A stretch of 58,193 bases of DNA, the filler included, from Basidiobolus ranarum (lineage: Eukaryota), in NCBI GenBank assembly GCA_040143965.1. It is 4 parts of 4 records of this genome, joined end to end, with 100 filler letters (N's around TTAATTAATTAA, not from the genome) between each part and the next. Parts side by side here need not be neighbours in the genome. Positions count along the whole stretch, not along the records: positions 29,190 to 43,646 come from JASJQH010007299.1; 3 more parts are not named here. One strand, written 5' to 3'. Every line of letters starts with the position of its first letter. Positions within the stretch are counted from its first letter, which is position 1. The position numbers and the translations under genes were made by a program. Below the pieces are notes generated by a model. That model did no database searches, was not told the origin of the DNA, and saw only the letters and a list, made by a program, of their open reading frames with translations. Positions 4,510 to 51,297 of this stretch are shown here, one piece after another.

Positions 4510-5991
4510 CTAGTAGGATAGGGCAATCATGACAAGGGAAGTAAGAATCAAAAGAGAGCTTGCAAACTCATAAGGTGTTAGAGAGATGGCAGAAGAAGTA
4601 GAAGCAATATGGATTGTGTCTAATGAAGTGAACAAATGGAAAGGTTGGAAGAGCCTGGTGATATTGTAGGATGGTCTATAAGCATTTAGAATTTCTTTAC
4701 TAGCTTCCAAATATCTTGGATCGTTGTAGATCACGTAAGCGTTCTGTAGGGTACGTACATATTGAAGAGTAGCACCAAAGCCTTCTACATTCGGGTAAGG
4801 CCAAACAGATTGATTTAAGGAGTATGGCAAGAGGTAGTCTAGAGCTCGTTTTATGCTTTGCCCTTTGCTACCTTTGTAGTGATATAGATCAACACCAACT
4901 TTAGTGCTTAGTGCAGCTAGGTGAAACAGCCCATTTAGATTGAATATGGAGTAGAACCAGGAGGTAGCACGCAAAGTTTCATGCGGCTGTGAACCATCGG
5001 GACTAATTTGAGTGTCAATTCGGCTACTAGTAGCATTCAGAGCTACCTTTGAAGCTAGGTCATCTCGGCCAAGAAACAGAGCAATGGCCATGTATTGAAC
5101 GTCAAAGTAGGTGGCTAATTAAGAATGATTAGTAAACTATAGCAATAGCGCTGATCTTCCTGACACTTACCGTGGTTATTGTGAGAAGTGCGTTCGAGGA
5201 AACCGAGTTCGCTTTTGTCCAGCCATGCCATATACTCCGTAAACCATTCTCGCAGACCGTTGGAAATATCTTCGGTCCAGTTTGATGATTCCTGCAAGTA
5301 TGGGATGACATTAAATAAGTCAGGCAACACGTTTAAATCGATGATCCCTTGTCGGCGTCCAAGATCCTCCCCACGTATATATGAGGCGTATCTCAAATGT
5401 GGGTTCATACGAGTCGAATTATCAACGAACCAAACTTTAAGGTGTTCAATAGCCTTTGACGCATAACTGTCGTTCTCCAGAAAATAGTAGGCTAAGCCTA
5501 GCGACTGAACATCTCGCACCTAAATTATTGAATTATCGGTATCTTATTTCAATTAGGGTAGATATATGAATACTTACCAGGGCACGGAATAACTGATAAT
5601 CCGAAACTGTGTTTATCTCTGGGTTGGAATGACCATCTCGACGTTTATAAGGCAGACCGTTCGGAGACTTCTCATTGGGCCAATAGTATCTGGCAAGTGA
5701 TAGGTAGTCTTGGCGGTTATTACTCGGAGGAAGTTGCGACTTAGTGGTAATGCTATATAACGTGTTGTTACCACAAGCTCTATCTGCCTTCTTTTTTAGC
5801 GTGTAGAATGCATCTTGAAGGTTTGCGTCATACGAGTTCAATTGTCGCTTGTTCTCAGCGAGTATCGAGGGATCTAGGCTGACAAAAGAGAACTTTTCTT
5901 CGACTTTGGCGCTACTAGCCATCCCTACATTCTCCAACAATCCTGTGGTAATCAATAGGATTAATAAGCTACTTCTAGATTTTCCCACCAT
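4510..5991 (-). CDS. Secreted alginate lyase family (PF05426-type) polysaccharide lyase, 3 exons, hydrophobic C-terminus (GPI-like)
   Basis: Motifs DYLSLARYYWPN...GLPYKRRDGHSNPE, WFVD..TRMNPHLRYA, NNH|ATY (across an intron), QISPDGSQPHETLR and FNLNGL. N-terminal hydrophobic leader; Ser/Thr-rich stretch and hydrophobic tail at the C-terminus. Confidence 0.85.
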
Positions 5992-7436
5992 AGCGATTTC
6001 TAATTCTGTCAAAGGGTAGAGCTTGTATCAGGTGTTGGGTGTTCTATGTAATATCGCTCTACAAATACCAAGGAGATTGAGAACAAGGGTGTATAGTATG
6101 CAATAGTAAACGCCTCTGTATGATGTATTCCAATGATTATACTGGAAGCGGTATGTTTATCTTTTATAATATCTCGAAAACTAGGCAGTGTTGGTTTATG
6201 GAATATGAAATTCATTTCGAATATTTCCGATACTGAGTTCCAAGAAATTGAGAATAATTGATGTAAACCTGATAGCTATGCTTATGACAATACCAAGATC
6301 GCTAAGGATATTCAAAGGAAATTACTTGTGATCCTCTCGGCATGTAGTTCTGAATTTTGCAGCGTTATTCAGAGCACAGGCTAATTAAAAGTATCCATAC
6401 AATATCATTGTTGGATGCATGAGGTTACGAATACTCGCATGGTTTTCAAGTAATGGCTGTTTTCAATTGAACCTAGTAATTTCTCTATTGAACTGCGACA
6501 ATGAGATTTAATGCCAATACACCCATCGGCCTATTCGCTGTTGCTGTTCGGTATATGGTACTGAAATTCACAAACCATTACTAATCGGCAAAGAACATAC
6601 CAGATACAAACCTAAGGAGTGACTGAATTAAGTTGATCAGTAAGATCTCGCCTCGTCAATGGTGCTATTAGTTGCATTATATATTGATGTTATCCCTACG
6701 TAAACTCCGAACTTTGGGGTCGGATAATAAAGAATAACCATCAAATCATATTGACATGCCATGATGTTTTGTTGGATACAGCGATTTTTGACTTTAATTA
6801 TTACGGTTGTTATCTAGACTTTGACTAGCTGGTTGCGTTCAGATGACCGCTGGATTAACTTTTACTCTGCTTAACAAGGAATTATTAAAGTAATCTGTCA
6901 CTAAGGAACTTCTGATATCTGTATAGATGTGATAGCCATTCAGTTGACCGTCTAATGCATGCTGTTCTACTATCGCCGATCTAGTTGAAAATAAGAACCT
7001 TCTTTGAAAACCTCTAGAGTTTATATGCTAGTATCAGTGAGATTTTCTTGGTAACTTTTTATCAGAACCTAAACCTCTAGAAGCGGCTGGATATCTGTAA
7101 GATAGATTGGAATGCTAGAATTAGGTATCGTATCTAGATGTCACTTATCTATGTATGCACTGTTCAATACCACAACTATCATTAGCATATAGATAATTCA
7201 TTTAATGACATATTTGATTCAAATAAAAGGTACTAATGTTAAGGCTCGCATTTTCATTACAAGGCTTTATATCAATACTGCATTTATATATTGTGCGCTA
7301 AAGAATTAGGTCTTCGTTTACCCATTCCATTGGAACAATAGGGGGCTTACTCTCAATAAATTTGTCAGTGTTTTTCCATTGGCAGTGTTGTCAAGTTAAT
7401 AATTCTACTGCGTCTTAAAGTACTTACATATCAAAC

Positions 7437-29189: not shown

Positions 29190-32100
29190 CGCTCAAGCGG
29201 CATAAACTATGGCTCCTTGTATGTACCTCCAAATGACCCAGATACGTGGATGCAGCATCATCCTACTCGACTATTCATCGTTCGGATAGACATATAAGTT
29301 TAATGGATGCGGTTGTTAGGGCTACTGTCGGAATGGTCGATGACGATTATGGGGATGACAGAGCAGATGAATTTTTAGATGAGCCGTATGCGCATGCCTC
29401 TAATATAGACCCTGAAAGACTGTCTTTACTTATCAAAGGATACAGCACGCTTGCTAATTCCTTTATACCAGCAGACGAAGATCCAGCAGATGATGCAGCT
29501 TCCGGAAAGTGGTCCAGACGCAAAAGCATCGCTAGATCCATCTATTCTGCCCATTATGCCAAAGAGGTTCCCGTTGAAAATGTTAAAGAAGTTATCCCAA
29601 AGAATCCTATTGAATTCATGAAATACTCGGTACAATTTTTACCGGCTGTTGCTCTTGGCGTTATACTGAATCTACTGAACGCAGTATCTTACGGCTTCAT
29701 TTGTTTTCCAACTGCACACCCTATCTTCTCTAGCTTTGGTCCTGATGGTATTTCCATGTACCTTGTGAGGTGTATCATAGGCCAGATCGTATTCTCAGCT
29801 GGTGGAAGTGCCTTTAAAGGTGCCAATGCTGGTATGATGTTGGAAGGTAAGAAGCATTAACTAAATTAGTCGACCAAGTCACGGTGTCTAATTCTTCTTA
29901 TCCTTATTTAGTAATTCCTTTTCTGTACACCATGTAAGTAAACCATTCATCATTCTCTAAATATTGTGAAGTTTTACTTAAATGCTGTTTAGTTGTGATA
30001 TTGTCATCCGCGACGTCGGAGAAGAAAACCCCAAAGCAGTGATTGCCACTGTTATGGTTGGTTACGCAGCAGCTACTATATTCACTGGATTGACTTTTAT
30101 GCTCTTGGGTGTTTTCAAGCTTGGCTCGCTAGTGGGATTCTTTCCTCGTCATATCCTCGTAGGATGCATCGGTAATTGAGTGATTCATCTTTGTAGTGTT
30201 GGATATGTTCTCACCTCTATGTTGAATAGGTGGAGTTGGTTGGTTTTTATTCCAAACCGCCATAGAAGTATCCTCTAGACTCCCTTCCTTCTCGTTTGCT
30301 CCTGATGTTCTTAAAAACTACTTCGAGCCTTCAGTGTTAGCTTTATGGGCTAGTAGTCTTGGGGCCGCGTTGCTTATGAGAATCTTGCAGAAAAGGATTC
30401 AACATCCAATGTTTGTCCCCTGCTTCTTTCTCTCTATCCCCATCTTCTTCTACTCCATAGTGTACTTCGGAGGATGGAGTATGGACGAGCTACGTACCTC
30501 TGGCTGGGTCTTCCCATTACCAGAGTCCAAACCTTTCTATGATTATTGGACTCATTTTGGTAAGACTCTATACTAACCCGATCCTTTTACCAAAACGATA
30601 CCTGGTTCTAACATGGATGTTTTTCGTTAGATTTCTCTCAAACTAGCTGGTCAACCCTACCATCACTTATTCCTGTTATCTCTGCATTAACATTCTTTGG
30701 TAAGTAATATCTCGACCTATTGAGCAAAGATCGTCAAGTCTTTTAGAGATCAAGCATGATATAGAGTATGAGGTTCAATTTCTCTAAACATGGTTCTTAA
30801 TAGGTATCTTGCATGTGCCCATCAACGTCCCTGCTTTGGCCGTAACCAATAATCAAGATAGTGTAGATGTTAACAAGGAGTTGGTTGCTCATGGTTATTC
30901 CAACCTTGGATCAGGTCTCCTCGGCTCTTTCCAAAGTATAAACAAACATTCTATTAATTTTCTACGTCAATGCACTAAACAGTACTTTGTTAGATTACTT
31001 GATGTACTCAACAAGCACCCTCTTCATTAAGTGTGGCGGTGACTCCAGAGTGGCAGGGATGATGTTGGCCTTTGGTACTACAATCATCTTTCTGATTGGA
31101 CCTACTATGGTTGGTTTTATCCCAACGATGGTAGTTGGCGGGTTAATTTTCCACATTGGTATGGAATTAATGAAGGAAGGAATATGGGATCCAATTGGCC
31201 ATGTGGATACATTGGAGTACACTACGATCTTGACTATCGTTATATCGATGGCGATTTTCGGATTCATTGAGGGAATGTTTATTGGAGTGGTATTGGCGTG
31301 TATCTTCTTTGTTTACCTGTGTAGTACCCGTAGAGCTATTCGAGCATCATTGACTGGTCTTACCGCCAAGAGTACCGTTCGCAGACCACGCTTACAACAA
31401 CGATTCCTGAATGAAGTTGGTTCAATGGTCCAAGTACTACGTCTGCAAGGGTTTATGTTCTTTGGATCAATCAACGGCGTAGAAAACAATATTCGAGAGA
31501 TCCTAGACGCTAGACAGTGGGTGATGAATCCGATTCGGTTCTTGGTTTTGGATTTCCAATAAGTACAAGGTCTTGATTTCAGTGCAGCTGAAGCTTTCGT
31601 TCGTGTTAAACGTTTGTTAAAGAGCAATGATGTTTACATGGTTGTATCTGGAGTCAGCGCAGATTCGGACATCGGAGTAGCACTTCGTGCTTTTCACATA
31701 TGGGGTGGTTTCGATGATGCTTATGTTCAAAACTTCCAGGATTTAAATGCTGCCCTGGAATGGTGTGAGAATGTGTTACTCCAAGCTGATTATCTCATTC
31801 GTGCCGCACTCCTAGCCTCGCCAAATAATATTGACATACCAGAATCCAGACAAGATGCTCGCTCGGAGATTTCTTTCGCACCTGCCTCACCGCGTCAACG
31901 TTTGTTGAAAGATGCTGCACGTGCCGCTCTTGACGATGAACCTCATACGCGTAAATCAATGGGTCAAGTCAATCAACCACTAGCACTTTTATTACAAATC
32001 TTCCAAGAAACTTCCTTTGATAGCTATGAAGATATTCTTCGTAGAATTAGCGTACACTTTCAGAGAATTGAAGTACAAGCTGACACCGTTCTTTGGGAGC

Positions 32101-32420
32101 AAGATGATGAGCCAGACGCGTTATATCTGGTTGAACAGGGTCTTTTGCATTTCTCAGTAGAGATGAACCAGCATAGTAAGGTAATTGAAACCGTAATCCC
32201 CGGAGTTATGATCGGAGAAATGAGTGTCTTCACTGATCAAATACGTCGTGACACGTTGGTCGCTGAGATTGACAGTGTTCTATGGAAATTAGACAAAGAA
32301 ACCTATGATAAGCTGTCTAATAACGAAGCAGACCTCATCCTTGGATTTGTCAAAATTGGACTTGGTTTCACAGCCCAAAGCTTTGTTACCATGAAGAGGT
32401 TAGCATTTGCACTCCAATGA
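29190..32420 (+). pseudogene. Vsb1/YGR125W-like SulP (SLC26) transporter with STAS and cNMP-binding domains; one in-frame TAA; 5' end in gap
   Basis: Motifs LPAVALGVILNLLNAVSYG, FFPRHILVGCIGGVG, LHVPINVPAL, ELVAHGYSN, LQGFMFFGSI, DFQ*VQGLDFSAAEAF (TAA 31560-31562), DLNAALEWCEN and a cNMP fold (LYLVEQG...GEMSVF). Confidence 0.75.
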
Positions 32421-33785
32421 TAGCGCAAAATAAGACGCCGATATGAAGACATGACTTGATGTTGGCGTTTCATTCACCATATACCACACAAATTCCAAAT
32501 ATCCCTTTATTTTATTTTTCTTTCTCGCTATGAACATATATAGAATATTTGCTACTTGTAAAATTCTAAGCTATCGGATTGGGAAATATTTGCGCTCAAT
32601 CTTCTCGTATCCCGACCTTTATAACTTATGAACAACTTCATCTTGAAGCTGGGTGTCTTATGTAGCATGTCCCTTGACCAAAATCCCAAGCTCAATAAAT
32701 GATTAACTAAACAAATTAGATAGGCATCCTACACTGTGGTCTCAATATAGCACCCGATTCCCTAACCCTTGATTAATTGCATTCACTAGGTAGAAAATAC
32801 CAAGCTATCGAACACACACCTAAGCCACTGGCGAGAGATACAGTCAACACGTCGCTAGTCCGTAGGCTATCATCCACATGTAAAAAATGTAAATGCCAAA
32901 GTGAGTTTAGGTGAACAAGGGTGACCATGTGATGTGACCATATATAGATACTATTCCTATTCTGTCCAGGTGACGGTACCAATCCATAGCCTAAAGTATC
33001 TTAACACCCAGTAGTATGGGGTAAGGCCGCCTAATGGTCGGCTCTCATTGAGCTGTTGTAACCATGGTAACAATTCTAACCCTTCTAATTCGTGTACGCC
33101 CTTATCTCTTGATTAATCCAGGGTGGTGGAAACAGTGCTGCCATTGACACCTTTCGCTGTGAGTCTCTATAGATATAACACAGATGAGCGAACCAACAGC
33201 TTGTTAGACGTGCAGTGCTTTGGGGAATCCTCATTCTCCTTCAGAATGAACATCATCTTGCTGGTTGGTCCAAATCATGAAAATTGTATAACTGTAGTAC
33301 GCTAAGCTATGTGGGACTAATCTAGAGACTTCGTGAGTATTCTCCTCACACAGAATGCTCATTCAGCTGCTAAATATTGATCTTCATTCTAAAAACGAGT
33401 ACGATTACAGTAGAATACTCCACTTCCGATCCAATCAGTGGGTGATGTCACCTCTTCACATGAAATGATTTCTGACCGTGAAGCACAGTCTTTGGTCTCA
33501 GAATCATGCATTGACAAACGCTTGAATTTCGAGTGAAATAAGCTAAATCAAGTTTTACTGCGCTATTCAATCATTTTTCAATTCATAGGTTTTCATTTTT
33601 CTGCCCTCTCCATTTCTGCTTTGGATAGTTTGTCTAGACGATTCGCACTGCTATCCTATTCACTTCTCAAAGTTCATATATTCCCGTCCCACAGTATTGA
33701 TCTGGTTCTTGTAGTCTTGATTCTACTACCTCTCAATCCTTAAAAGCCTTCTCCAAGGCCTCTTTGTTTCGAGGTAACAATTAAC

Positions 33786-36700
33786 ATGGGAAAGGACGGA
33801 CAGAAGTTGCCGCAGATTTCCGGAAGAAAAGGCTCTGTTGGATACGCTTCGTTACTATCGGAACCTATTGCTTTCAGCAAAAGTAACCCCAATGGCCAAC
33901 TCCTCAAACAAACTTTCGTACCTGAGGAAACTCGAGAAAACTTATTGAATACTTCAGTTGGCGTTTCCGCTTTGCTTCATAAATTTGCTAGTCTTGCATA
34001 TTTTTTTTGCTCTATAAGTTCTCTTGCAAGCCTCTCTATTAGAGCATTTAATGATATGGAATTTAACCTAAATACCTTGTTTACTTCACCTTTGTACTTT
34101 CTGTACATTATTCAACTTTGCTTTTGGAGCTATTCCTTTTTTGCCTTGATTCCCAACACCCCCGCCCTACGCAATAGTTTGTCGTTTTCTCTCCTTTTTT
34201 CGTTATTCCTTTCCACTCTTTACATTGTTGTGTTTGTATTTACTTTGGCCTTGACTTGTGCAACCTCGATAGAACCTTTTTGGGCTTACGGAAATATCTT
34301 CACTGCTGAGACTTCATTATTCGATAGTGTTCTTGTACTCTCTTCTCCTTTTTTAGCTTTGTTGCTTTCCCTACTGGCTGCTCATGATAGAGATCGTCGA
34401 GAATTCTTAACAATAGTCTCTAGTGAATTAAAGACACTCACCGACAAAGTTTCAAAAGTAATGACCGAGAGTACAAGCCACAGATGTCAATTTATTAAAA
34501 CCGTTGCTATGGAGTTTGAAGACACAACTTCTATGGCTGTTCAAATTGTAAAGCAACTATCACCACCGGAGCTCTTAATCAAACCTCAAGAGCACGTATC
34601 AGCGTGCTCCATTCCGATTCCCACTGCTTCCGTGACGGCGATACATACTTCCCTTCGTCATATCATCAATATATCTTCTCGCTTGAATGTAATCAGTCAG
34701 CTAATTACTAACGATGACCAAGCTAATGAAAATCTCCGACTTATCCTCTCAAATAAGAGTGAGTTCGAGATTGGAGGGTTGATACAAAGTATTGGTGATT
34801 TGCTTGCCGGAACTGCTGCCGAATCCAAAGTAGAATTAGTCTTGTGTCATGAAGATAGTGGTTTTCATCATATGCACGTGCTCGGAAACGAAAATGCCTT
34901 CCGTCATGCGTTAATTGCCGTAAGTAATGATATATTTATGTCTATAGACCAACTCTATCTCTTTGCTGATTGATATCTCTTTTTAGTTGGTAAAGGGAGT
35001 AATATCCTCTACGAAAGCTGGAACACCCATTGAGTTAGGACTCCATTTGGCATCTAACCAAGAGAGCTTTGGATCATCAGCCGCTAATCTAAGTGAGAGT
35101 AACACATGTCAATTTATGCTAGAGATCGTATATGCGCCGAATGAATTCAACTTGAACCTGCTCGCAGACAGCTCCCTTACTAGAAAATTGATCAAGGAGC
35201 TGGGTGGCGAACTCAAAGTCGAATCCAAGGACAAAGTACAGATGGTCAACTTGAGTTTCGTTCTTCCAATACCTCAATTAAATCTCGAAAATAAGAAAGA
35301 AATCAAACCCAGTACGGAAGATTGTAAACGTCATCTGAAAATCACAGATGAGCCCAGTGTCAGCGAATTAACTTTATTTGCAAATACACTGCGTGGTTTA
35401 AGAGTCGCACTACATGCCAAGAACCATTCCACTTTTGCCAAGCATTTGACATCATGCTTGACTATATGGGGCACTGATATAACCCATATCTCTATTGACG
35501 CGCCAATCGAACCACCGCAGCAATCTAATGTAAAAGATACCTCGTTCACAGAAAGCCTACAGGTACCAACTAAAGCTGGAGTTCATGCTGAGAAGGCTGG
35601 CTCACTTGATGCAAGTAATGGTACTTCCGAGGACGCTTCTAAATTCAACGTTCCTCCGTCATTTATTATCATTGATGATGATGTGAAGACTTTACGGGAT
35701 CAATTTGTGTCGCTTCGCAACAACCCAGCATTCAATTTCTCAAACCATCAGCATCGTAGGCACAAACGTATGGAGCTTCTGAGTAATCATATGATTACTT
35801 CGATCATCCATTTCACCTCTCTCTCAAACTATCAACATATTAAAGATGAAGTGTACTCTCTGCTGATGATGCCTCACCATCTTCTCCCCCCACAAGTGTT
35901 GGTTATCCCAAAGCCAGTCGGCCCTAAGAGGTTGCTAACGGCACTTTACACAGCAGTCGTGAAGCCCAAAGTTGACCCTTCATATGTTCCTATTGCCACC
36001 TCCCCTATGAGTCCTGGCCTCAGGTACTATCAAAACAAAGAAGAAGAGAGAAATCCGATGGATATGATTAACTTTGATTCATATAGACCACCCACCGATT
36101 CATCCCTCGACTCTATAACTGTCCCAACTCCTAGCAATGGCTTTGCAACACCTATTGCTGGCACTATCGTTTTTGATCCTAAACAATTTGCTACCAATGG
36201 ACAAATACCGACTGTTTCTGCCTTTCCTCGTGTTACTCCTTACCTTAATCGTAGAGTGTCCGACCAGAATAATCTTTCCAATCCACCAGTAGTTGGCCCA
36301 CTCGGAACAAATGGCCATACGATAGCATCGCCAATGATTAACGGAAAGCCAATAGCACTTCCACCCGTCCCGATTTCTCGACCAAAAGGCTCTCCATCAG
36401 GATTGATACCTGCCGTATCATCACCAATCCCACGAGTTTCCCCCATCCCTACTCCACTTTCAGCCCCACTCCCCGCTACTGCTCCTACGAGTACAACAAC
36501 AAAAACTAAATCGAAAACTAGTCTAAAGAAAAAAGCGACTAGACCATCTAGTGGGACATCCAAGTCTACTTCGGCTCTTCCCAACGTAGTCAGCCCCCCT
36601 ATCAATGTATTGATTGTAGAAGGTAGGAAAAAACTTGATGTCTATTCTACTGCTTGAGTATCAAACTAAATTTAACTTCTCTAGATAATCCAATCAATCA

Positions 36701-37548
36701 GACTATTTTATCAACGTTTATGAAAAAACGTAAGATTAAGTATTCAGTAGCGAACAACGGACTCGAAGCTGTCGAAAAGTGGAAAGAGGGAGGATTTCAT
36801 CTTGTTTTGGTACGTTTCACACGCGCTCTCTTGTGTAAACACTTACTGATGTTGTACATTTACATTATAGATGGATATTCAATTGCCTGTTATGGATGGT
36901 ATAGAGGCTACGAAAAAAATCCGATCAATAGAAAAGATGCAGAAGATAGGAATACTCAGTGCCTCAACGTTTGCTTCAAATGGCGGCTCTAACCCTAATT
37001 CACCAACATCACCATTTTGCTCCCCTGTTATTATTTTGGCTCTTACTGCCTCGTCTTTACAATCTGATCGACATGCTGCATTGGCTGCTGGATGTAACGA
37101 TTTCTTGACTAAGCCTGTATCATTAGTATGGTTGGAAAAGAAGATCATGGAGTGGGGTTGTATGCAAGCATTAATTGATTTCGAAGGTTGGAGAAAATGG
37201 AAGAGTCAAGACTCCAACTCACTCACTGGCTCACTGGGTAAGACGGCCAGCAATGTAAGCAAAGGAAAGGAGCCTTATGCTGGATTACGCGAATCTATTA
37301 TTCCTATAAACAGGAAAATTGAGTTCAACCAGAAAGCATCGCTGGAAACTTTGGAAAACCTGAAGTTGCCCACTCGGAAACTGTACCGAAAATCGAATAG
37401 CGTGACAAAGTCAAACGGGACAAACACTGATAATAAAGTTGAATCTGCCATAGTTGCGCCAATTTCGTCAGACGACAAGCCGGTAGCCACAGTCGATGGC
37501 AATACGCAAGCAACCGTCTCAGACATGTCGAGTGTGGAACGGAAATAA
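33786..37548 (+). CDS. SSK1: Ssk1/Mcs4-like two-component response regulator with N-terminal TM helices and degenerate histidine-kinase-like region
   Basis: C-terminal receiver domain PPINVLIVE|DNPINQTIL...GGFHLVL|MDIQLPVMDG...ALTASSLQSDRHAALAAGCNDFLTKPVSLVWLEKKIMEWGCMQALIDF. Upstream PKPVGPKRLLTALYTAV and PIATSPMSPG. Three introns. Confidence 0.9.
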
Positions 37549-38675: not shown

Positions 38676-39861
38676 AGTAAGTGGTCCAAATAAATGCCTA
38701 CTCTCTACTTCTCTTGGTTACCAAATCTTCTTCTCTGTTGTAATTTTTTTTGCTTTTACTGTACTAAACTATATCACGTATCCTTGGCTTATTTTCCACT
38801 TCAACCATATCGGCTTGACTTGAATATTTTACTTCACTTTCAAAAGAAACACCACCATCTGTTTGCATTTTAATAACTTTTTACTCGCAATAGTGGATGA
38901 TATGAGCAGCAGTAACTCGGATAGTGACTACATGAAATACTGGATTGACTGGTTCTTGAGTACGAAAGGAAACGAGTACTTTTGTGAAGTAGATGAAGAA
39001 TATATTTTGGATAGATTCAACTTGACTGGTTTGAATACCGAAGTTCAACATTACGTCCAAGCTCTTGATCTTATAACCGACTCTTTAGGTATGGCCCAGT
39101 GAGATGTTATTTGGTTTTCATATGTGCATCTTACGTTGAGACTGAAACTGATGACTATATTGACTACCTGTAGATGAAGAGTTCGATGACGAGATGAGAC
39201 AGGCAGTCGAGAAGTCGGCTCGTCATCTCTACGGTCTTATTCATGCTAGATACGTTCTTACCAACCGTGGTCTCGCGAAAATGGTTAGTTAGCATTTATT
39301 TTCGATCTATGGAGGAGACACATTGAGTTATCTTTGTCGGCTTCTAACAATGATGATATCATATTTGATTAACGTGAGATATGGTAATTTTTAGGTAGAG
39401 AAGTATAAGAAAGCAGAGTTTGGTAGATGCCCTCGTGTACTATGTTACAATCACCCATTACTTCCCGTTGGCCTCTCCGATGTTCCTTTTACTAGATCAG
39501 TAAAGCTCTACTGTTGTAGATGTGAGGACATCTATAATCCTAAATCTTCTAGGCATGCAAATATCCTTTTATTTTTCTTCTTTTATGGTTGAGCAAGATT
39601 TCTAGAACCTTCATATAGTTATCCTTAACCCTATCTTTGTTTGATGCTTCACGTATCGACGGTGCTTACTATGGCTCCTCCTTCCCACACATGCTTTTCC
39701 AAGTTTATCCACATCTAGTACCTCCCAAGTCTACAGAGCGTTACGTACCCCGTATCTTTGGGTTCAAGGTCCATGAAATCAGCAAACAGCACAGATTCCA
39801 AGATTGCATCAGGGAAGAGCAGCAGAAGCGCTTGAATGGTGGAGAAATGGATGTTTCTTAA
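38676..39861 (+). CDS. CKB: Casein kinase II regulatory subunit beta
   Basis: Motifs [83 protein letters not shown] and [11 protein letters not shown]. The start codon is inferred to be split A|TG by intron 38677-38893. Confidence 0.96.
39561..39652 (+). other. U12-type (minor spliceosome) AT-AC intron
   Basis: 5' splice site ATATCCTTT, branch site TCCTTAAC at 39622-39629 and terminal AC. Removal restores HA-S-IDGAY in frame. Confidence 0.92.
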
Positions 39862-45224: not shown

Positions 45225-46385
45225 ATGAAAGCGCTTTTCTTCGACAAATACACCACTTTCGATAATTATACCTTTGGTGACTTACCTAACCCTGAGATTC
45301 ACAACCCTACCGAGGTATTGATCAAAGTCCATGCAGCCAGGTTTGTAACACAATTTTTATAAAACTCAAGCCAATCTAGTACACACTTCCTTTCAGATAA
45401 TAACCAAAATATTCTTTCCGTTCTATTTAGTATCAACCCTATTGATTACAAGCGTGCCAATGGGCTATTGAAGATGGTGGAAACCATCGAATTCCCAGGA
45501 AAACTTGGCTATGACGTATCTGGAGAAGTGGTAGCGGTTGGCTCTGAAGTAGAGCGGTTTAAGATCGGTGATTTGGTCTATGGTAGAGTCCAATCACACC
45601 AAGTAGGTACACTTGCCGAATATTGCGTTGCCTCAGAATTTACTTTGTCCAAGAAGCTTGAGACCATGAGCCATGTAGAAGCTGCTTCGTATCCCTTGGT
45701 ATTTCTCACCGCACTTCAAGCCTTAATAACAGCTGGCTTAGATGCTGAGAATGTGGCAAATAACAAAGACAAAAAGGTGTTTATTACTTCGGGATTAGGC
45801 GGAGTTGGGTATCACGCTGTACTCCTAGCGAAGAATTTCTTCAAGGTAACCACTATAGCTACCACAGTATCTACAGGGAAACTTAAAAGAGCCAGAGAGA
45901 CATTTGGTGAAGATACGGTGCTCATTGACTATAAAACTCAGGAAATTACGAAGGAGCTTCATGACTATGACGTACTATTTGATACAGTAGGGACCGACCT
46001 CTTGAGCAACATGCATGTACTTAAAAGAGGTAGTGGTTGTGTCAGTATTGCTTCTACTCCAACAGGCACGGCGCTCATCAATGCATTCCAATCTCCGGAT
46101 GCTAGCAGTGGACTTGGTAGTTGGGCAGTTAAGAATTTGGTTAATCTGGTCGCTTCGCCTTACTGCCTTCAAGCGTGGCGCTTAGGTATCAATTACGAGT
46201 ACATCTTCATGAAGCCAAATGGCAGTCAGCTTGAGAACATCCTGAATCTCCTATTTAGCGAAGGAAATATGCCAGCCAACATAGATAAGGTGTATGGTTG
46301 GTCAGAGAAGGAATGTAAAGAAGCTTACAAACATCTAGTTGATGGCCACTCCTCAGGCAAAGTAGTCATTAAAGTCCGTGACTAA
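45225..46385 (+). CDS. Medium-chain dehydrogenase/reductase (NADPH:quinone reductase / RTN4IP1-like)
   Basis: Motifs EVLIKVHAA|SINPIDYK, LGYDVSGEVVAVG, GTLAEY, GLGGVG and GHSSGKVVI. One intron. Confidence 0.9.
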
Positions 46386-47856
46386 ATCGATGAGTATATT
46401 GTAGATTGTTGGTAATTAGAAGATAAATTAAATAGCGAAGATAACTGTTTCTTCTATGGATATTTGGCAGCGTAGTGAAGTATGAAATCAATAAACTCTG
46501 CTATGCAATATTCTTGACTCCTACTCATTACGAACGAGAACATAAAAAAGCCTTGAGCTAAGAACCTTACAATTTACTTGAACTGACTAATCTTGGACGC
46601 TGCAAAATATACTCCTAACTAGACTGTTGCGCTGTAACTGCCATTGTGTAAAACCCATACCAGTCTTGAGTCTATTTCAGATACACGTCAACATTACTGA
46701 CACCTTGGAGCTATTCCAAGAAGACCATTGGGTTGTAGAATGATGTAGCGATGCATCGAACAGATTCGCAGCAGATTGTTTCTAAAAAGGTTATGGAGAA
46801 TCGGCAACTGCCTCAACTCGGTACCAACGTGTAGAAAAAGCCGAGCTTCAACTCTGGCCAAATACGTGAAAGAACAACGGACACGGGTAGCTGTAGCTTT
46901 GTTCTTTCGTGTTAACTTGCCGTACTGTCAAAGCATGTGGGCTGTGTAGAAATATAGCATGCACAATGAATGAGATCCAAACCCCTTGAGGTCCTAAATA
47001 AATAATGATAGGTTTATCGAATATATATGCGGATCTCTCAAAAAAAGTGCCTTAGCTTTTGTGAGCCAACTCAAGGTTTTCTGGAAATGGAGATGTCAGG
47101 TGACACAGAAAATCTTCCATCTAAAATTCGGATCAAATGGAGCACTCAGGTTTTATATGAAAGCTTGCTGACCAACGAAAGTTTAAAGTCCATGCCACTG
47201 ACCCCAGTCGCCGTATTTGTGGATGTGTTTGAGCATTAGAGAGATTTAATAATATCCAGCACCCCAATCTGGTCAAACAGAAAGAAGGAATTGGGTTAGT
47301 TTTGATATTTCAAGAAACTACGCATTCCTGATTTGGTGGCTAAGACGGCTTTGCTCTAATCCACACTTTGTTGGCACCATGGGCACATACAAATTCGGTA
47401 CCCACTTGTGCCCCTGATTCCGTTATTTTAGGCTACTGACTAATGGAATAGGAAAACCCTGGTGAGATCAGTGATGCATGGGCTTATTTTATACGGATTG
47501 ATATTGATGGCCACTTTGAAGATGCCAATTTCCCACGTCCATTAAGCACTACCATTTTTTTCCTCTTTCTTAGGTCCCTTGTGATCAAGACTCGGTTTAT
47601 TTCTACCTTGCTGTTATACCTATTAATATCTCAAATTTAATCAATACACCAAGTTAGAACGATTACTTTGAATATCTGGCCTGTTGACAAAGCTTTTACT
47701 TTACAGTTTCTTGATAGATATCATACCGGCTAGAACAAGTGATTCTCATTACTGTGAAATAACTTGTTCATTATCTATAGATACAGTTAAATTTCAAGAC
47801 GAAGCACTCAACAATCGCAGAGTAAGACGATAGAGACTTGAGTAACTTCTATCACT

Positions 47857-50800
47857 ATGACAACAAATACTGCACCAACATACATACAGGTCAATACTCA
47901 ATCCTTAAATAGATCTAGTTCACTCTCACTTTCACCCTCACCGGTTGATAATCATATTTCACATGCTGGACGACCACGCAACGAATTATGGGATCATTTC
48001 ATCAAAGGTGAGAAGCGACCTACTACAAACAAATACGATGCGCGATGTCGTTATTGCGTTGAAAAAGGAGATATTAACACAATCCGACCTGTACGCGGTG
48101 AGAAGAAATTTATGGTTGCTCATCTCAAAAAGTGCCTGAATGCTCCAGAAAGTTTACGTACGCGCATTCGCGGCGAGTCAAATCACTCTACGGAGGCTCA
48201 AGGTAAAAATGACGATGAGATAGAAACCAAACGAGATTTAGAGGATAATCCCGCCAAAAAACGGAAGTCTAATGGTACTTCTGAATCGGAATGGATGTCT
48301 TCCGGTGTTACTCCCCAATCTCTCAATGAATTTCTACTTTACACTTCGGATGCAGAAAAAAAGTCTCAGGACGATAAATTTTATTTGGAAGATAGCTTTG
48401 TTTCCAAGTATAAAGAACGTTTGCCCTCTTTTGGTTTTAATGGGCTTGGTGAGATCATATACCGGCGTACATATAGCAGACTTGGGAAAGATGGAACTCG
48501 AGAGCAATGGTATGTACTCGCCTGGCAAAGAGCAATGCATATAAGTATACGTTAGCATTAATTGACTTTTCAATATGAATCCAGGTGGCAAACCGTTCGG
48601 AGAGTTGTTAATGCCACATTCAGCATGCAGAGGCGATGTATTGAAAAATCGAACTTGGGGTGGAATGAAGAAAAAGTGATATTCTTTCTTCCCAAGCATT
48701 CTCCAACACAAACTGACCTAGATCTTATGATTTTAACTTTAGGCGCAAAAATCTGCACAAAAAATGTTTGATCGCATATTCAGCATGAAGTTCTTACCAC
48801 CTGGAAGAGGTAATATGTATGCCAAGGACAAAGTCGGGATTTCTTCTCTATTTCTAATACTAGTCATATAGGTCTTTGGGCAATGGGTTCGCCGCTGACG
48901 GAAGAACGTGGAATCTACACAGCTCTTAACAATTGTGGCTTCGTTAGTACTGAGTGTATGTGGGAGCGGGGATTTACGCCAAGTAAGCCCTTTGCATTTC
49001 TGATGGATGCCTCGATGCTGGGGTATGTAACCAACCCAATCTATGTCGCAATGCTTGTAGAGTCAATAGTTAACTCTAGAAAATCTGATCAGAGTAGGGG
49101 TGGGGTTTGATACTAAAGGCGCAGCAATTGCCCGAGAACGAGGTATCATCGTAACAGGGCCGGATGCCACACTGTCTCCCAGCGTTTACACTATCCCTGA
49201 TTGTCGAGAAGGGTGGGTCAAGTCGATAGAATTGATTGTCGATTGCTATTTCAACGCAGATATGAGCATACAAGCAAGTGCATTTAGTTCGTGGATCACT
49301 TTTAACCATATTCTAATGAAGTTACATCTCTTAGGAATTCAAGTATCATTGCATTCGGCCTGCGGGGGCACCTATAAAAGGATTCGGTGGGCAGTCATCT
49401 GGACCCCAGCCTCTGATAGATCTCCACAATCGTATACGGGAGGTACTCAATAAAAACATCGGTGCACCGATATCTGTGACGACGATTGTCGATATCATGA
49501 ATCTGATTGGAAAATGTGTTGCCAGTGGAAATGTAGTTAATCTCCTTGCTTGTTCTATGTGCTACAAGTCGACTAACCACTCATCCAAATCAACATAGGT
49601 CAGACGTAGTGCGGAGATAGCTTTCGGAGACCCTTTTGATGATGAATACATCGATTTGAAGAATTATGAGGTGAATCCTCATCGGTGTGAATACGGGTGG
49701 ACAAGTAACAACTCTGTGCGTGCTTTCAGTCTATTTTCTTGGATACTATTTACTGACCGAGTATTGTACACATTCCCTTTCTAGGTATTTGCGAATCTCG
49801 GCATGGACTATCATAACATCTGTAAACGTGTCATTGCTAACGGTGAGCCTGGGTTTTCGTGGTTAGACAACGCACGGAACTATGGCAGAATGGGTGACCC
49901 TATGGTAATCTGTTTATGACGACACCATCACTTTACTTGTTTGCTGAATCCTTCTCTTCCACATTGTTGATAGGATAAGCGAGATTATCGAGCACAGGGA
50001 GGAAATCCATGTCTGGAACAAACCCTTGAATCCTTTGAGTTATGTTGTCTCGTTGAGGTGTTTCCCAATAACCATACGTCGCTGGATGATTTCTTGGAAA
50101 CACTTGAGTCCGCATTCCTCTACGCTAAAACGGTGACCTTGGGAACTACACATTGGCCAGAAAGCAATAGAGTAATGATGAGAAATCGTAGAATTGGAAC
50201 AGGGTTGAGTGGTATTGCCCAATTTATCAGTAAAAGAGGTGATTTCAAATGTAAAGTATGGATTCCCGACTGTGACACTCAATATCATGTTAATCTCTTA
50301 GGACTTGAAGAGCTTAAAACGTGGTGCGAAGAGGGATACAAGCATATCCTGGATATAGACAAAAAGTAAGATAATGGCACTCGCAATGGTATATACTTTA
50401 TCTATGCTTACAGGCATTTTAGGCTATGTGAATGGCTGTGCATTCCCCAATCCATCAAAACCACCACCGTTAAGCCCAGTGGTACGGTTTCGCTATTAGC
50501 TGGCGGTATGTAGCTGTACACCCTTCGATTAGATCGATGATATGCTAACCTGCCTTCCCCACCCAGCCACCCCTGGATTACACTATCCAGAAAGTAGATT
50601 CTGCATTCGCCGTGTGCGTTTATCTAAAATGTCGGAAATGGTTGAGCCTTTCCGAGAAGCCGGGTACAAAGTAGAACCTGATGTTGGTACGTTCCGTTTG
50701 ATGTATTTTTCACACTAGAAGATCATTCTCTCATCTAACCACCACTCCCTCTACCATACTGCAGTGGAGCCAAACACGTTGGTGGTTGAGATTCCTATTG

Positions 50801-51297
50801 ACCATGGTGAAGGGATAAGATCGCTAGCAGACGTGACGATGTGGGAGCAGTTGTCTTTGGCAGCCTTTATGCAGAAATACTGGTCTGACAATCAAGTCTC
50901 ATGCACCATAACGTTTGACCCGGAGACCGAAGGATCTCACCTTAAATACGCACTCAACTACTTCCAGTACCAGTTGAAGGGAGTTTCCTTCTTACCTAGA
51001 ATTCCGATGGGTGCGTACTCCCAGATGCCGTATGAAGCCATATCAGAGTTTAAATATCTTCAACTGACTGCGAGCATTACTAAACCTGGGCCCAAGAGTC
51101 CCAGTGTCTCCCACCTACTGTTAAATCCACAAGGGCTGACGGCACCCGACCTTCGGAATATCGAAGGAGATCCCACAGTGGATCCAGAGATTGAGCGATT
51201 CTGCGATTGGAGCCCTTACATGTTCGATAGCGCATGTGCCAATTCTGGTTTACCAGAGGAGGCTAACACGTGCCCCTCAAATATCATGAGATTTTAG
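47857..51297 (+). CDS. nrdJ: Class II adenosylcobalamin-dependent ribonucleoside-triphosphate reductase (monomeric NrdJ/RTPR type) with N-terminal BED-type zinc finger
   Basis: Splices by eye through 12 introns with no stops. Motifs [111 protein letters not shown] and YSQMPYE. Confidence 0.95.

Follow-up and report, generated by a model that had tools for sequence, protein, structure and literature searches.

A predicted AT-AC intron of the U12 type within CK2 beta of the fungus Basidiobolus

The CK2 beta gene

The stretch of DNA analyzed here, hereafter the window, is 58,193 nucleotides long, and all coordinates given below are positions in it. A gene for CK2 beta, located within the part derived from JASJQH010007299.1 (29,190-43,646), occupies positions 38902-39861 of the plus strand and is divided into four exons that, when joined, yield an open frame of 223 codons (Table 1). 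Each of the four exons, taken singly, exceeds the curated cut-off of the Pfam family PF01214 (CK_II_beta; 27 bits, profile length 182), and together they cover approximately the full profile. Comparison with proteins of known structure aligns exon 3 with residues 98-151 of the CK2 beta chain in PDB 1qf8_A (E=2.5e-20) and the exon 4 frame with residues 153-202 of 1jwh_C. Exon 3 contains two Cys pairs, both of which are matched to the Cys pairs of human CK2 beta in the structure-sequence alignment; we take this four-Cys motif to be zinc-binding, and the C-terminal segment encoded in exon 4 to be the contact to the catalytic alpha subunit.

Table 1. Features of the CK2 beta gene and of its third intron (positions in the window)
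Feature	Position	Strand	Description
CK2 beta exon 1	38902..39088	+	ATG at 38902; PF01214 positions 2-48, 60.7 bits
Intron 1	39089..39173	+	GT-AG, 85 nt, phase 1, GTATGG...TGTAG, U2-type appearance
CK2 beta exon 2	39174..39283	+	PF01214 positions 55-88, 36.7 bits
Intron 2	39284..39394	+	GT-AG, 111 nt, phase 0, GTTAGT...TTTAG
CK2 beta exon 3	39395..39560	+	PF01214 positions 90-142, 73.8 bits; Cys pairs of the presumed zinc-binding motif
Intron 3	39561..39652	+	AT-AC, 92 nt, phase 1, 30% G+C, predicted U12-type
5' splice site ATATCCTTT	39561..39569	+	9/9 against the U12 consensus /RTATCCTTT
Branch-site box TCCTTAAC	39622..39629	+	8/8 against the consensus UCCUUAAC
3' terminal AC	39651..39652	+	First AC or AG 3' of the branch box
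CK2 beta exon 4	39653..39861	+	PF01214 positions 145-182, 43.9 bits; stop TAA 39859-39861

Other genes in the window

Several further genes were recognized in the window. Upstream of the CK2 beta gene, a gene on the plus strand (29237-32420) encodes a sulfate permease (PF00916) with a C-terminal cyclic-nucleotide-binding domain (PF00027), that is, a fusion of a transporter with a sensor. Between this gene and CK2 beta, on the same strand (33744-37548), lie open reading frames of 409, 556 and 225 amino acids, for which the sole Pfam match is a terminal response-regulator receiver domain; this region may encode a divergent signaling protein similar to hybrid histidine kinases, with a long Ser/Pro-rich linker. 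On the minus strand, three adjacent pieces of open reading frame (4510-6027) span positions 1 to 275 of the Alginate_lyase profile PF05426 and represent an alginate lyase-like gene, for which an NCBIfam match was not found. An intron-split gene on the plus strand (47842-51297) resembles the family of class II adenosylcobalamin-dependent ribonucleoside-triphosphate reductases, as indicated by matches of two of its exons to TIGR02505 RTPR (E=3.8e-14 and 1.1e-9) and by a match to the Pfam domain RNR_Alpha. A class II, B12-dependent ribonucleotide reductase is unusual for a fungus, and the gene might derive from horizontal acquisition.

Signals of the third intron

Exon 3 of the CK2 beta gene ends with ...CATGCAA at position 39560, one base into a split codon, and exon 4 begins at 39653 with GTATCGACGG, the first two bases of which complete this codon as Ser. 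The intervening segment starts with ATATCCTTTT and ends with TTCAC. The consensus sequences of the U12-type donor and branch-site box with which its signals were compared are printed in both PMC2846911 and PMC8199999, and the classification of the intron as U12-type was made by consensus matching combined with exhaustive enumeration of boundaries. The preliminary description of this locus, which placed a 92-nt U12-type AT-AC intron in CK2 beta at 39561..39652, is exact in both sequence and coordinates.

Termini of the AT-AC kind do not, by themselves, define which spliceosome is used, and 'other AT-AC introns' are tabulated for fungi such as Phycomyces in PMC2846911; the segment could accordingly be spliced by the major, U2-dependent spliceosome, like the rare U2-type AT-AC class. 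Against this reading stands the complete agreement of the donor (9/9) and of the box (8/8) with the U12 consensus, which is unlike the GTRAGT-like or CTRAC-like patterns of U2-type introns, and we consider splicing by the major spliceosome highly improbable.

In the U12-type assignment that we prefer, the putative branch-point A is 39628 (or 39627), and the distance from A39628 to the last base of the intron, 39652, is 24 nt. This distance lies outside the range of 10-20 nt that is given as typical (11-13 nt being optimal) in the review PMC8199999 and inside the interval from -40 to -5 that published classifiers scan for the branch site, according to the methods outlined in PMC2846911. The phase of intron 3 agrees with the phase bias of minor introns stated in PMC10639083, where phase 1 is favored over phase 2 and phase 2 over phase 0. 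Downstream of the branch box, 17 of 23 nucleotides are pyrimidines. The usual description of minor introns is that they are without a polypyrimidine tract. The long branch distance and the pyrimidine-rich tail are atypical and speak against the assignment; they are regarded here as variations in typical, rather than defining, properties of the class.

The junction required by protein homology

Joining the exons across the AT-AC boundaries produces the junction codon A/GT, encoding Ser, and restores the conserved sequence RHASIDGAY. In PF01214, the gap between the segments matched by exons 3 and 4 amounts to two profile positions, which are taken by Ala55 and the split codon. In the numbering of human CK2 beta, the alignment of exon 3 stops at His151 and the exon 4 frame picks up at 153/154. 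Because the last residues of exon 3 are His151-Ala152, followed by one further base, and exon 4 opens with two bases and then Ile154-Asp155, exactly one split codon is required by homology. The spacing thus demanded is nearly invariant among the homologs: from the second Cys-pair motif to DGAY there are 8 residues in 204 of the 206 homologs fetched, the same as in the AT-AC model, and the other two have no upstream Cys-pair motif, so that no other spacing occurs in the set. With a stricter pattern, RH and DGA are separated by 3 residues in 198 of the 206; the remaining 8 are misses of the pattern, with the spacing unchanged. At the position of the split codon, the most frequent residue is Ser, with 96 of 198, and Asn accounts for only 3 of 198.

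Conventional splice sites around the gap were enumerated as 114 pairs of a GT or GC donor with an AG acceptor, none of which reproduces the conserved spacing. The frame is open for at least 190 codons in 12 of these combinations. Nine of the 12 lose the DGAY block, one being out of frame; the other three use the AG at 39617-39618, which keeps DGAY and adds 12 unmatched residues, and two of these three lose part of exon 3. When the 92-nt gap was slid by -6 to +6 nt (13 shifts), a known pair of terminal dinucleotides, AT-AC, appeared at shift 0 only. This is also the only shift that places Ser at the junction; when the gap is moved by +1 to +5, the residue becomes Asn and the termini are pairs such as TA-CG and AT-GT. 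The earlier statement that there is no GT-AG solution restoring HASIDGAY is confirmed, because all 114 pairs fail and only shift 0 of the 13 has recognized termini.

The sole conventional in-frame solution that keeps exons 1-3 whole, together with DGAY and the C-terminus (233 codons), is a short U2-type GC-AG intron of 62 nt at 39557-39618, the use of which would place 12 residues instead of two between RH and IDGAY. In our judgement, its donor, GCAAAT, is weak as a 5' splice site. The resulting spacing of 18 residues compares with 8 in 204 of the 206 homologs. Moreover, the inserted residues are unmatched in PDB and Pfam, the alignment of the exon 4 frame beginning only at residues 11-12 of the open reading frame that starts at 39619. 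We therefore assign this GC-AG alternative a very small probability. The U12-type motifs and the AT-AC boundaries are present in the sequence as described above, and the boundaries 39561/39652 are the only ones that restore the conserved protein.

A closely related CK2 beta sequence in Basidiobolus ranarum

The closest relative of the CK2 beta gene product is a protein of B. ranarum, denoted P0001, which is identical to the gene model in 215 of 223 residues, differs from it in the other 8, and has 3 extra residues at the N-terminus. By exon, the identity is 100% for exon 3 and 94% for exon 4. P0001 thus represents a copy with slight differences, be it a paralog, an allele or a strain variant. 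Elsewhere in the window, the product of the open reading frame 45363-46382 shows 100% identity to an enoyl reductase-domain protein of B. ranarum in an alignment spanning 94% of the query, the next match being at 39%. The 8 differences in 223 positions of P0001, set beside the complete identity in the aligned part of 45363-46382, suggest that the fungus has two copies or two alleles of CK2 beta.

P0001 contains the expected RHASIDGAY junction. It had been anticipated in the preliminary description that standard gene callers would probably mis-annotate the gene; judged from the protein, this one close public model carries the junction correctly, and the expectation does not hold for it.

Because a slightly different CK2 beta, P0001, exists in B. 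ranarum, the present locus could be a redundant copy, and one might envisage that 39561-39652 is not spliced at all, the locus being a decaying duplicate or encoding a truncated protein that would end, after 11 read-through codons, at the TGA at 39593-39595. The state of the locus argues against such decay: exon 4 is a clean open frame that is highly similar to the corresponding part of P0001 and scores well above the PF01214 cut-off (43.9 against 27 bits), all splice signals are perfect, and introns 1 and 2 are intact. The chance that the segment is left unspliced accordingly appears to be very slight. In our assessment, which is based on sequence comparison, it is very probable that 39561-39652 is a U12-type AT-AC spliceosomal intron, the third intron of the CK2 beta gene of a Basidiobolus that is either B. 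ranarum itself or a fungus very closely related to it.

Expectation by chance and other copies of the motifs

Taken alone, the motifs are not rare at the scale of the window. Counted on both strands, there are 11 copies of RTATCCTT, where 5.88 would be expected, a count of at least 11 being reached in 2 of 100 shuffles; for TCCTTAAC there are 3 copies, where 1.93 would be expected, with at least 3 in 33 of 100 shuffles. Of 1000 Markov-simulated windows, 33 contained a donor, a branch box and a YAC or YAG in the corresponding arrangement at some place. What goes beyond chance is the coincidence of both intron ends with the exact nucleotides that protein homology demands. The probability of both ends falling on these nucleotides by chance, obtained by arithmetic from the observed motif counts and before the terminal AC is required, is 9.5e-5 x (25 x 2.6e-5), or approximately 6e-8 (on the order of 1e-7).

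Donors and boxes were also paired across the window in a scan with a donor pattern slightly looser than RTATCCTT, in which ...CCTC was allowed as well. Among the donor sites of the window, only the one at 39561 is closely followed, at 61 nt, by a branch box that is perfect. A second minor intron was not seen in the window, the other donor sites having only degenerate boxes at distances of 173 to 1490 nt. The mild excess of RTATCCTT in the window is noted as such; apart from 39561, there is no convincing branch box near these sites. One further donor-like sequence, GTATCCTT at 38778-38785 on the plus strand, is located approximately 120 nt 5' of the CK2 beta ATG, likely in the 5' UTR, and is probably due to chance, because a matching branch box is missing between it and the ATG.

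Predicted splicing and the minor spliceosome in fungi

Removal of intron 3 is predicted to be carried out by the minor spliceosome, the machinery for which would be present in this genome. In the proposed course of events, which follows what is established for minor splicing in general, the U11/U12 di-snRNP would bind the intron, with U11 pairing to ATATCCTTT and U12 pairing to TCCTTAAC, leaving the A at 39627/39628 bulged. The U4atac/U6atac.U5 tri-snRNP would then enter, and U11 would be exchanged for U6atac at the 5' splice site. The branch A would attack the 5' junction at 39560/39561, and the freed exon 3 would be ligated to 39653, with the first AC 3' of the branch site serving as the acceptor. 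The predicted product of ligation contains the A/GT Ser codon within RHASIDGAY and encodes an intact CK2 beta of 223 residues.

The presence of the minor spliceosome in the Basidiobolus lineage is already part of published knowledge. For B. meristosporus, PMC10639083 gives 249 minor introns, or 0.554%, the highest value in fungi, and PMC11347168 gives 237; 205 are reported for Rhizophagus irregularis in PMC10639083. In the account given in the same survey, there are no convincing minor introns in Ascomycota and Basidiomycota, and the view taken in the preliminary description, that minor introns were lost in Dikarya and retained in some early-diverging fungi, is so stated in passages of both PMC10639083 and PMC11347168. 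With respect to the RNA components, U11, U12 and U6atac are described in PMC11347168 for several mucoromycote and zoopagomycote fungi, along with a putative divergent U4atac of B. meristosporus that emerged once the threshold was lowered. Because Basidiobolus is already known for hundreds of minor introns, intron 3 is regarded as a genuine and ordinary case. A working minor spliceosome in the present genome is plausible on this comparative evidence. The further suggestion of the preliminary description, that CK2 beta expression may be rate-limited in this way, is purely speculative.

Within the 58-kb window itself, the search for minor snRNA genes (U11, U12, U4atac and U6atac) gave 0 Rfam matches at the gathering thresholds, and no minor-spliceosome protein genes were recognizable among the window open reading frames scanned against Pfam. 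At E<=1, the only window matches were two to other Rfam families, one MIR9563-like and one TeloSII-like, which are weak, unrelated and far below the respective gathering scores, and were set aside.

In a literature search at the level of papers, none was found that links CK2 beta (CSNK2B) with a minor intron, and the terms 'CSNK2B' and 'casein kinase' are absent from one supplement file of PMC11347168. The literature that combines Basidiobolus with U12, beyond PMC10639083, PMC11347168 and their preprints, consists of single mentions in papers that, by title, address other topics. The CK2 beta intron may already be contained in public databases.

Implications

The immediate value of recognizing intron 3 lies in the correct annotation of the gene, and in a clean, easily assayed example of a fungal minor-class intron in the gene for an essential, highly conserved regulator. 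The intron could further serve as a reporter junction for the activity of the minor spliceosome in Basidiobolus, and as a data point on whether the unusually many minor introns of Basidiobolus were gained or retained. That this particular AT-AC intron is a lineage-specific gain of a minor intron in Basidiobolus, rather than an ancient retention, appears to us conceivable and rather unlikely. Should it be true, with CK2 beta lacking the intron at this position in animals, in plants and in the other fungi, the intron would constitute a concrete case of the recent creation of a minor intron. To our knowledge, such recent creation is rare outside Physarum. In the reconstruction presented in PMC10639083, the ancestor of Zoopagomycota had a low density of minor introns, and Basidiobolus has the highest density among fungi.

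Comparison with known introns

Intron 3 of CK2 beta resembles the U12-type AT-AC introns of animals and plants in its AT-AC termini, in the /ATATCCTTT donor, in the TCCTTAAC box near the 3' end, in its non-zero phase, and in that the gene it interrupts is an ancient, conserved housekeeping gene. It differs from them in that 24 nt separate the branch box from the 3' splice site, where 10-20 nt is usual, in that the tail is pyrimidine-rich, and in that the host is a fungus, for which removal by the minor spliceosome is predicted here. The minor introns catalogued for B. meristosporus and Rhizophagus irregularis are elements of the same kind, from the same genus or the same kingdom, respectively; in contrast to the B. 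meristosporus catalogue, the proteins encoded in the window match those of B. ranarum. With the U2-type AT-AC introns, intron 3 shares the AT-AC terminal dinucleotides. In introns of that type, the sequences at the branch and in the interior of the 5' splice site are U2-like, whereas the donor and the branch site of intron 3 both follow the U12 consensus.
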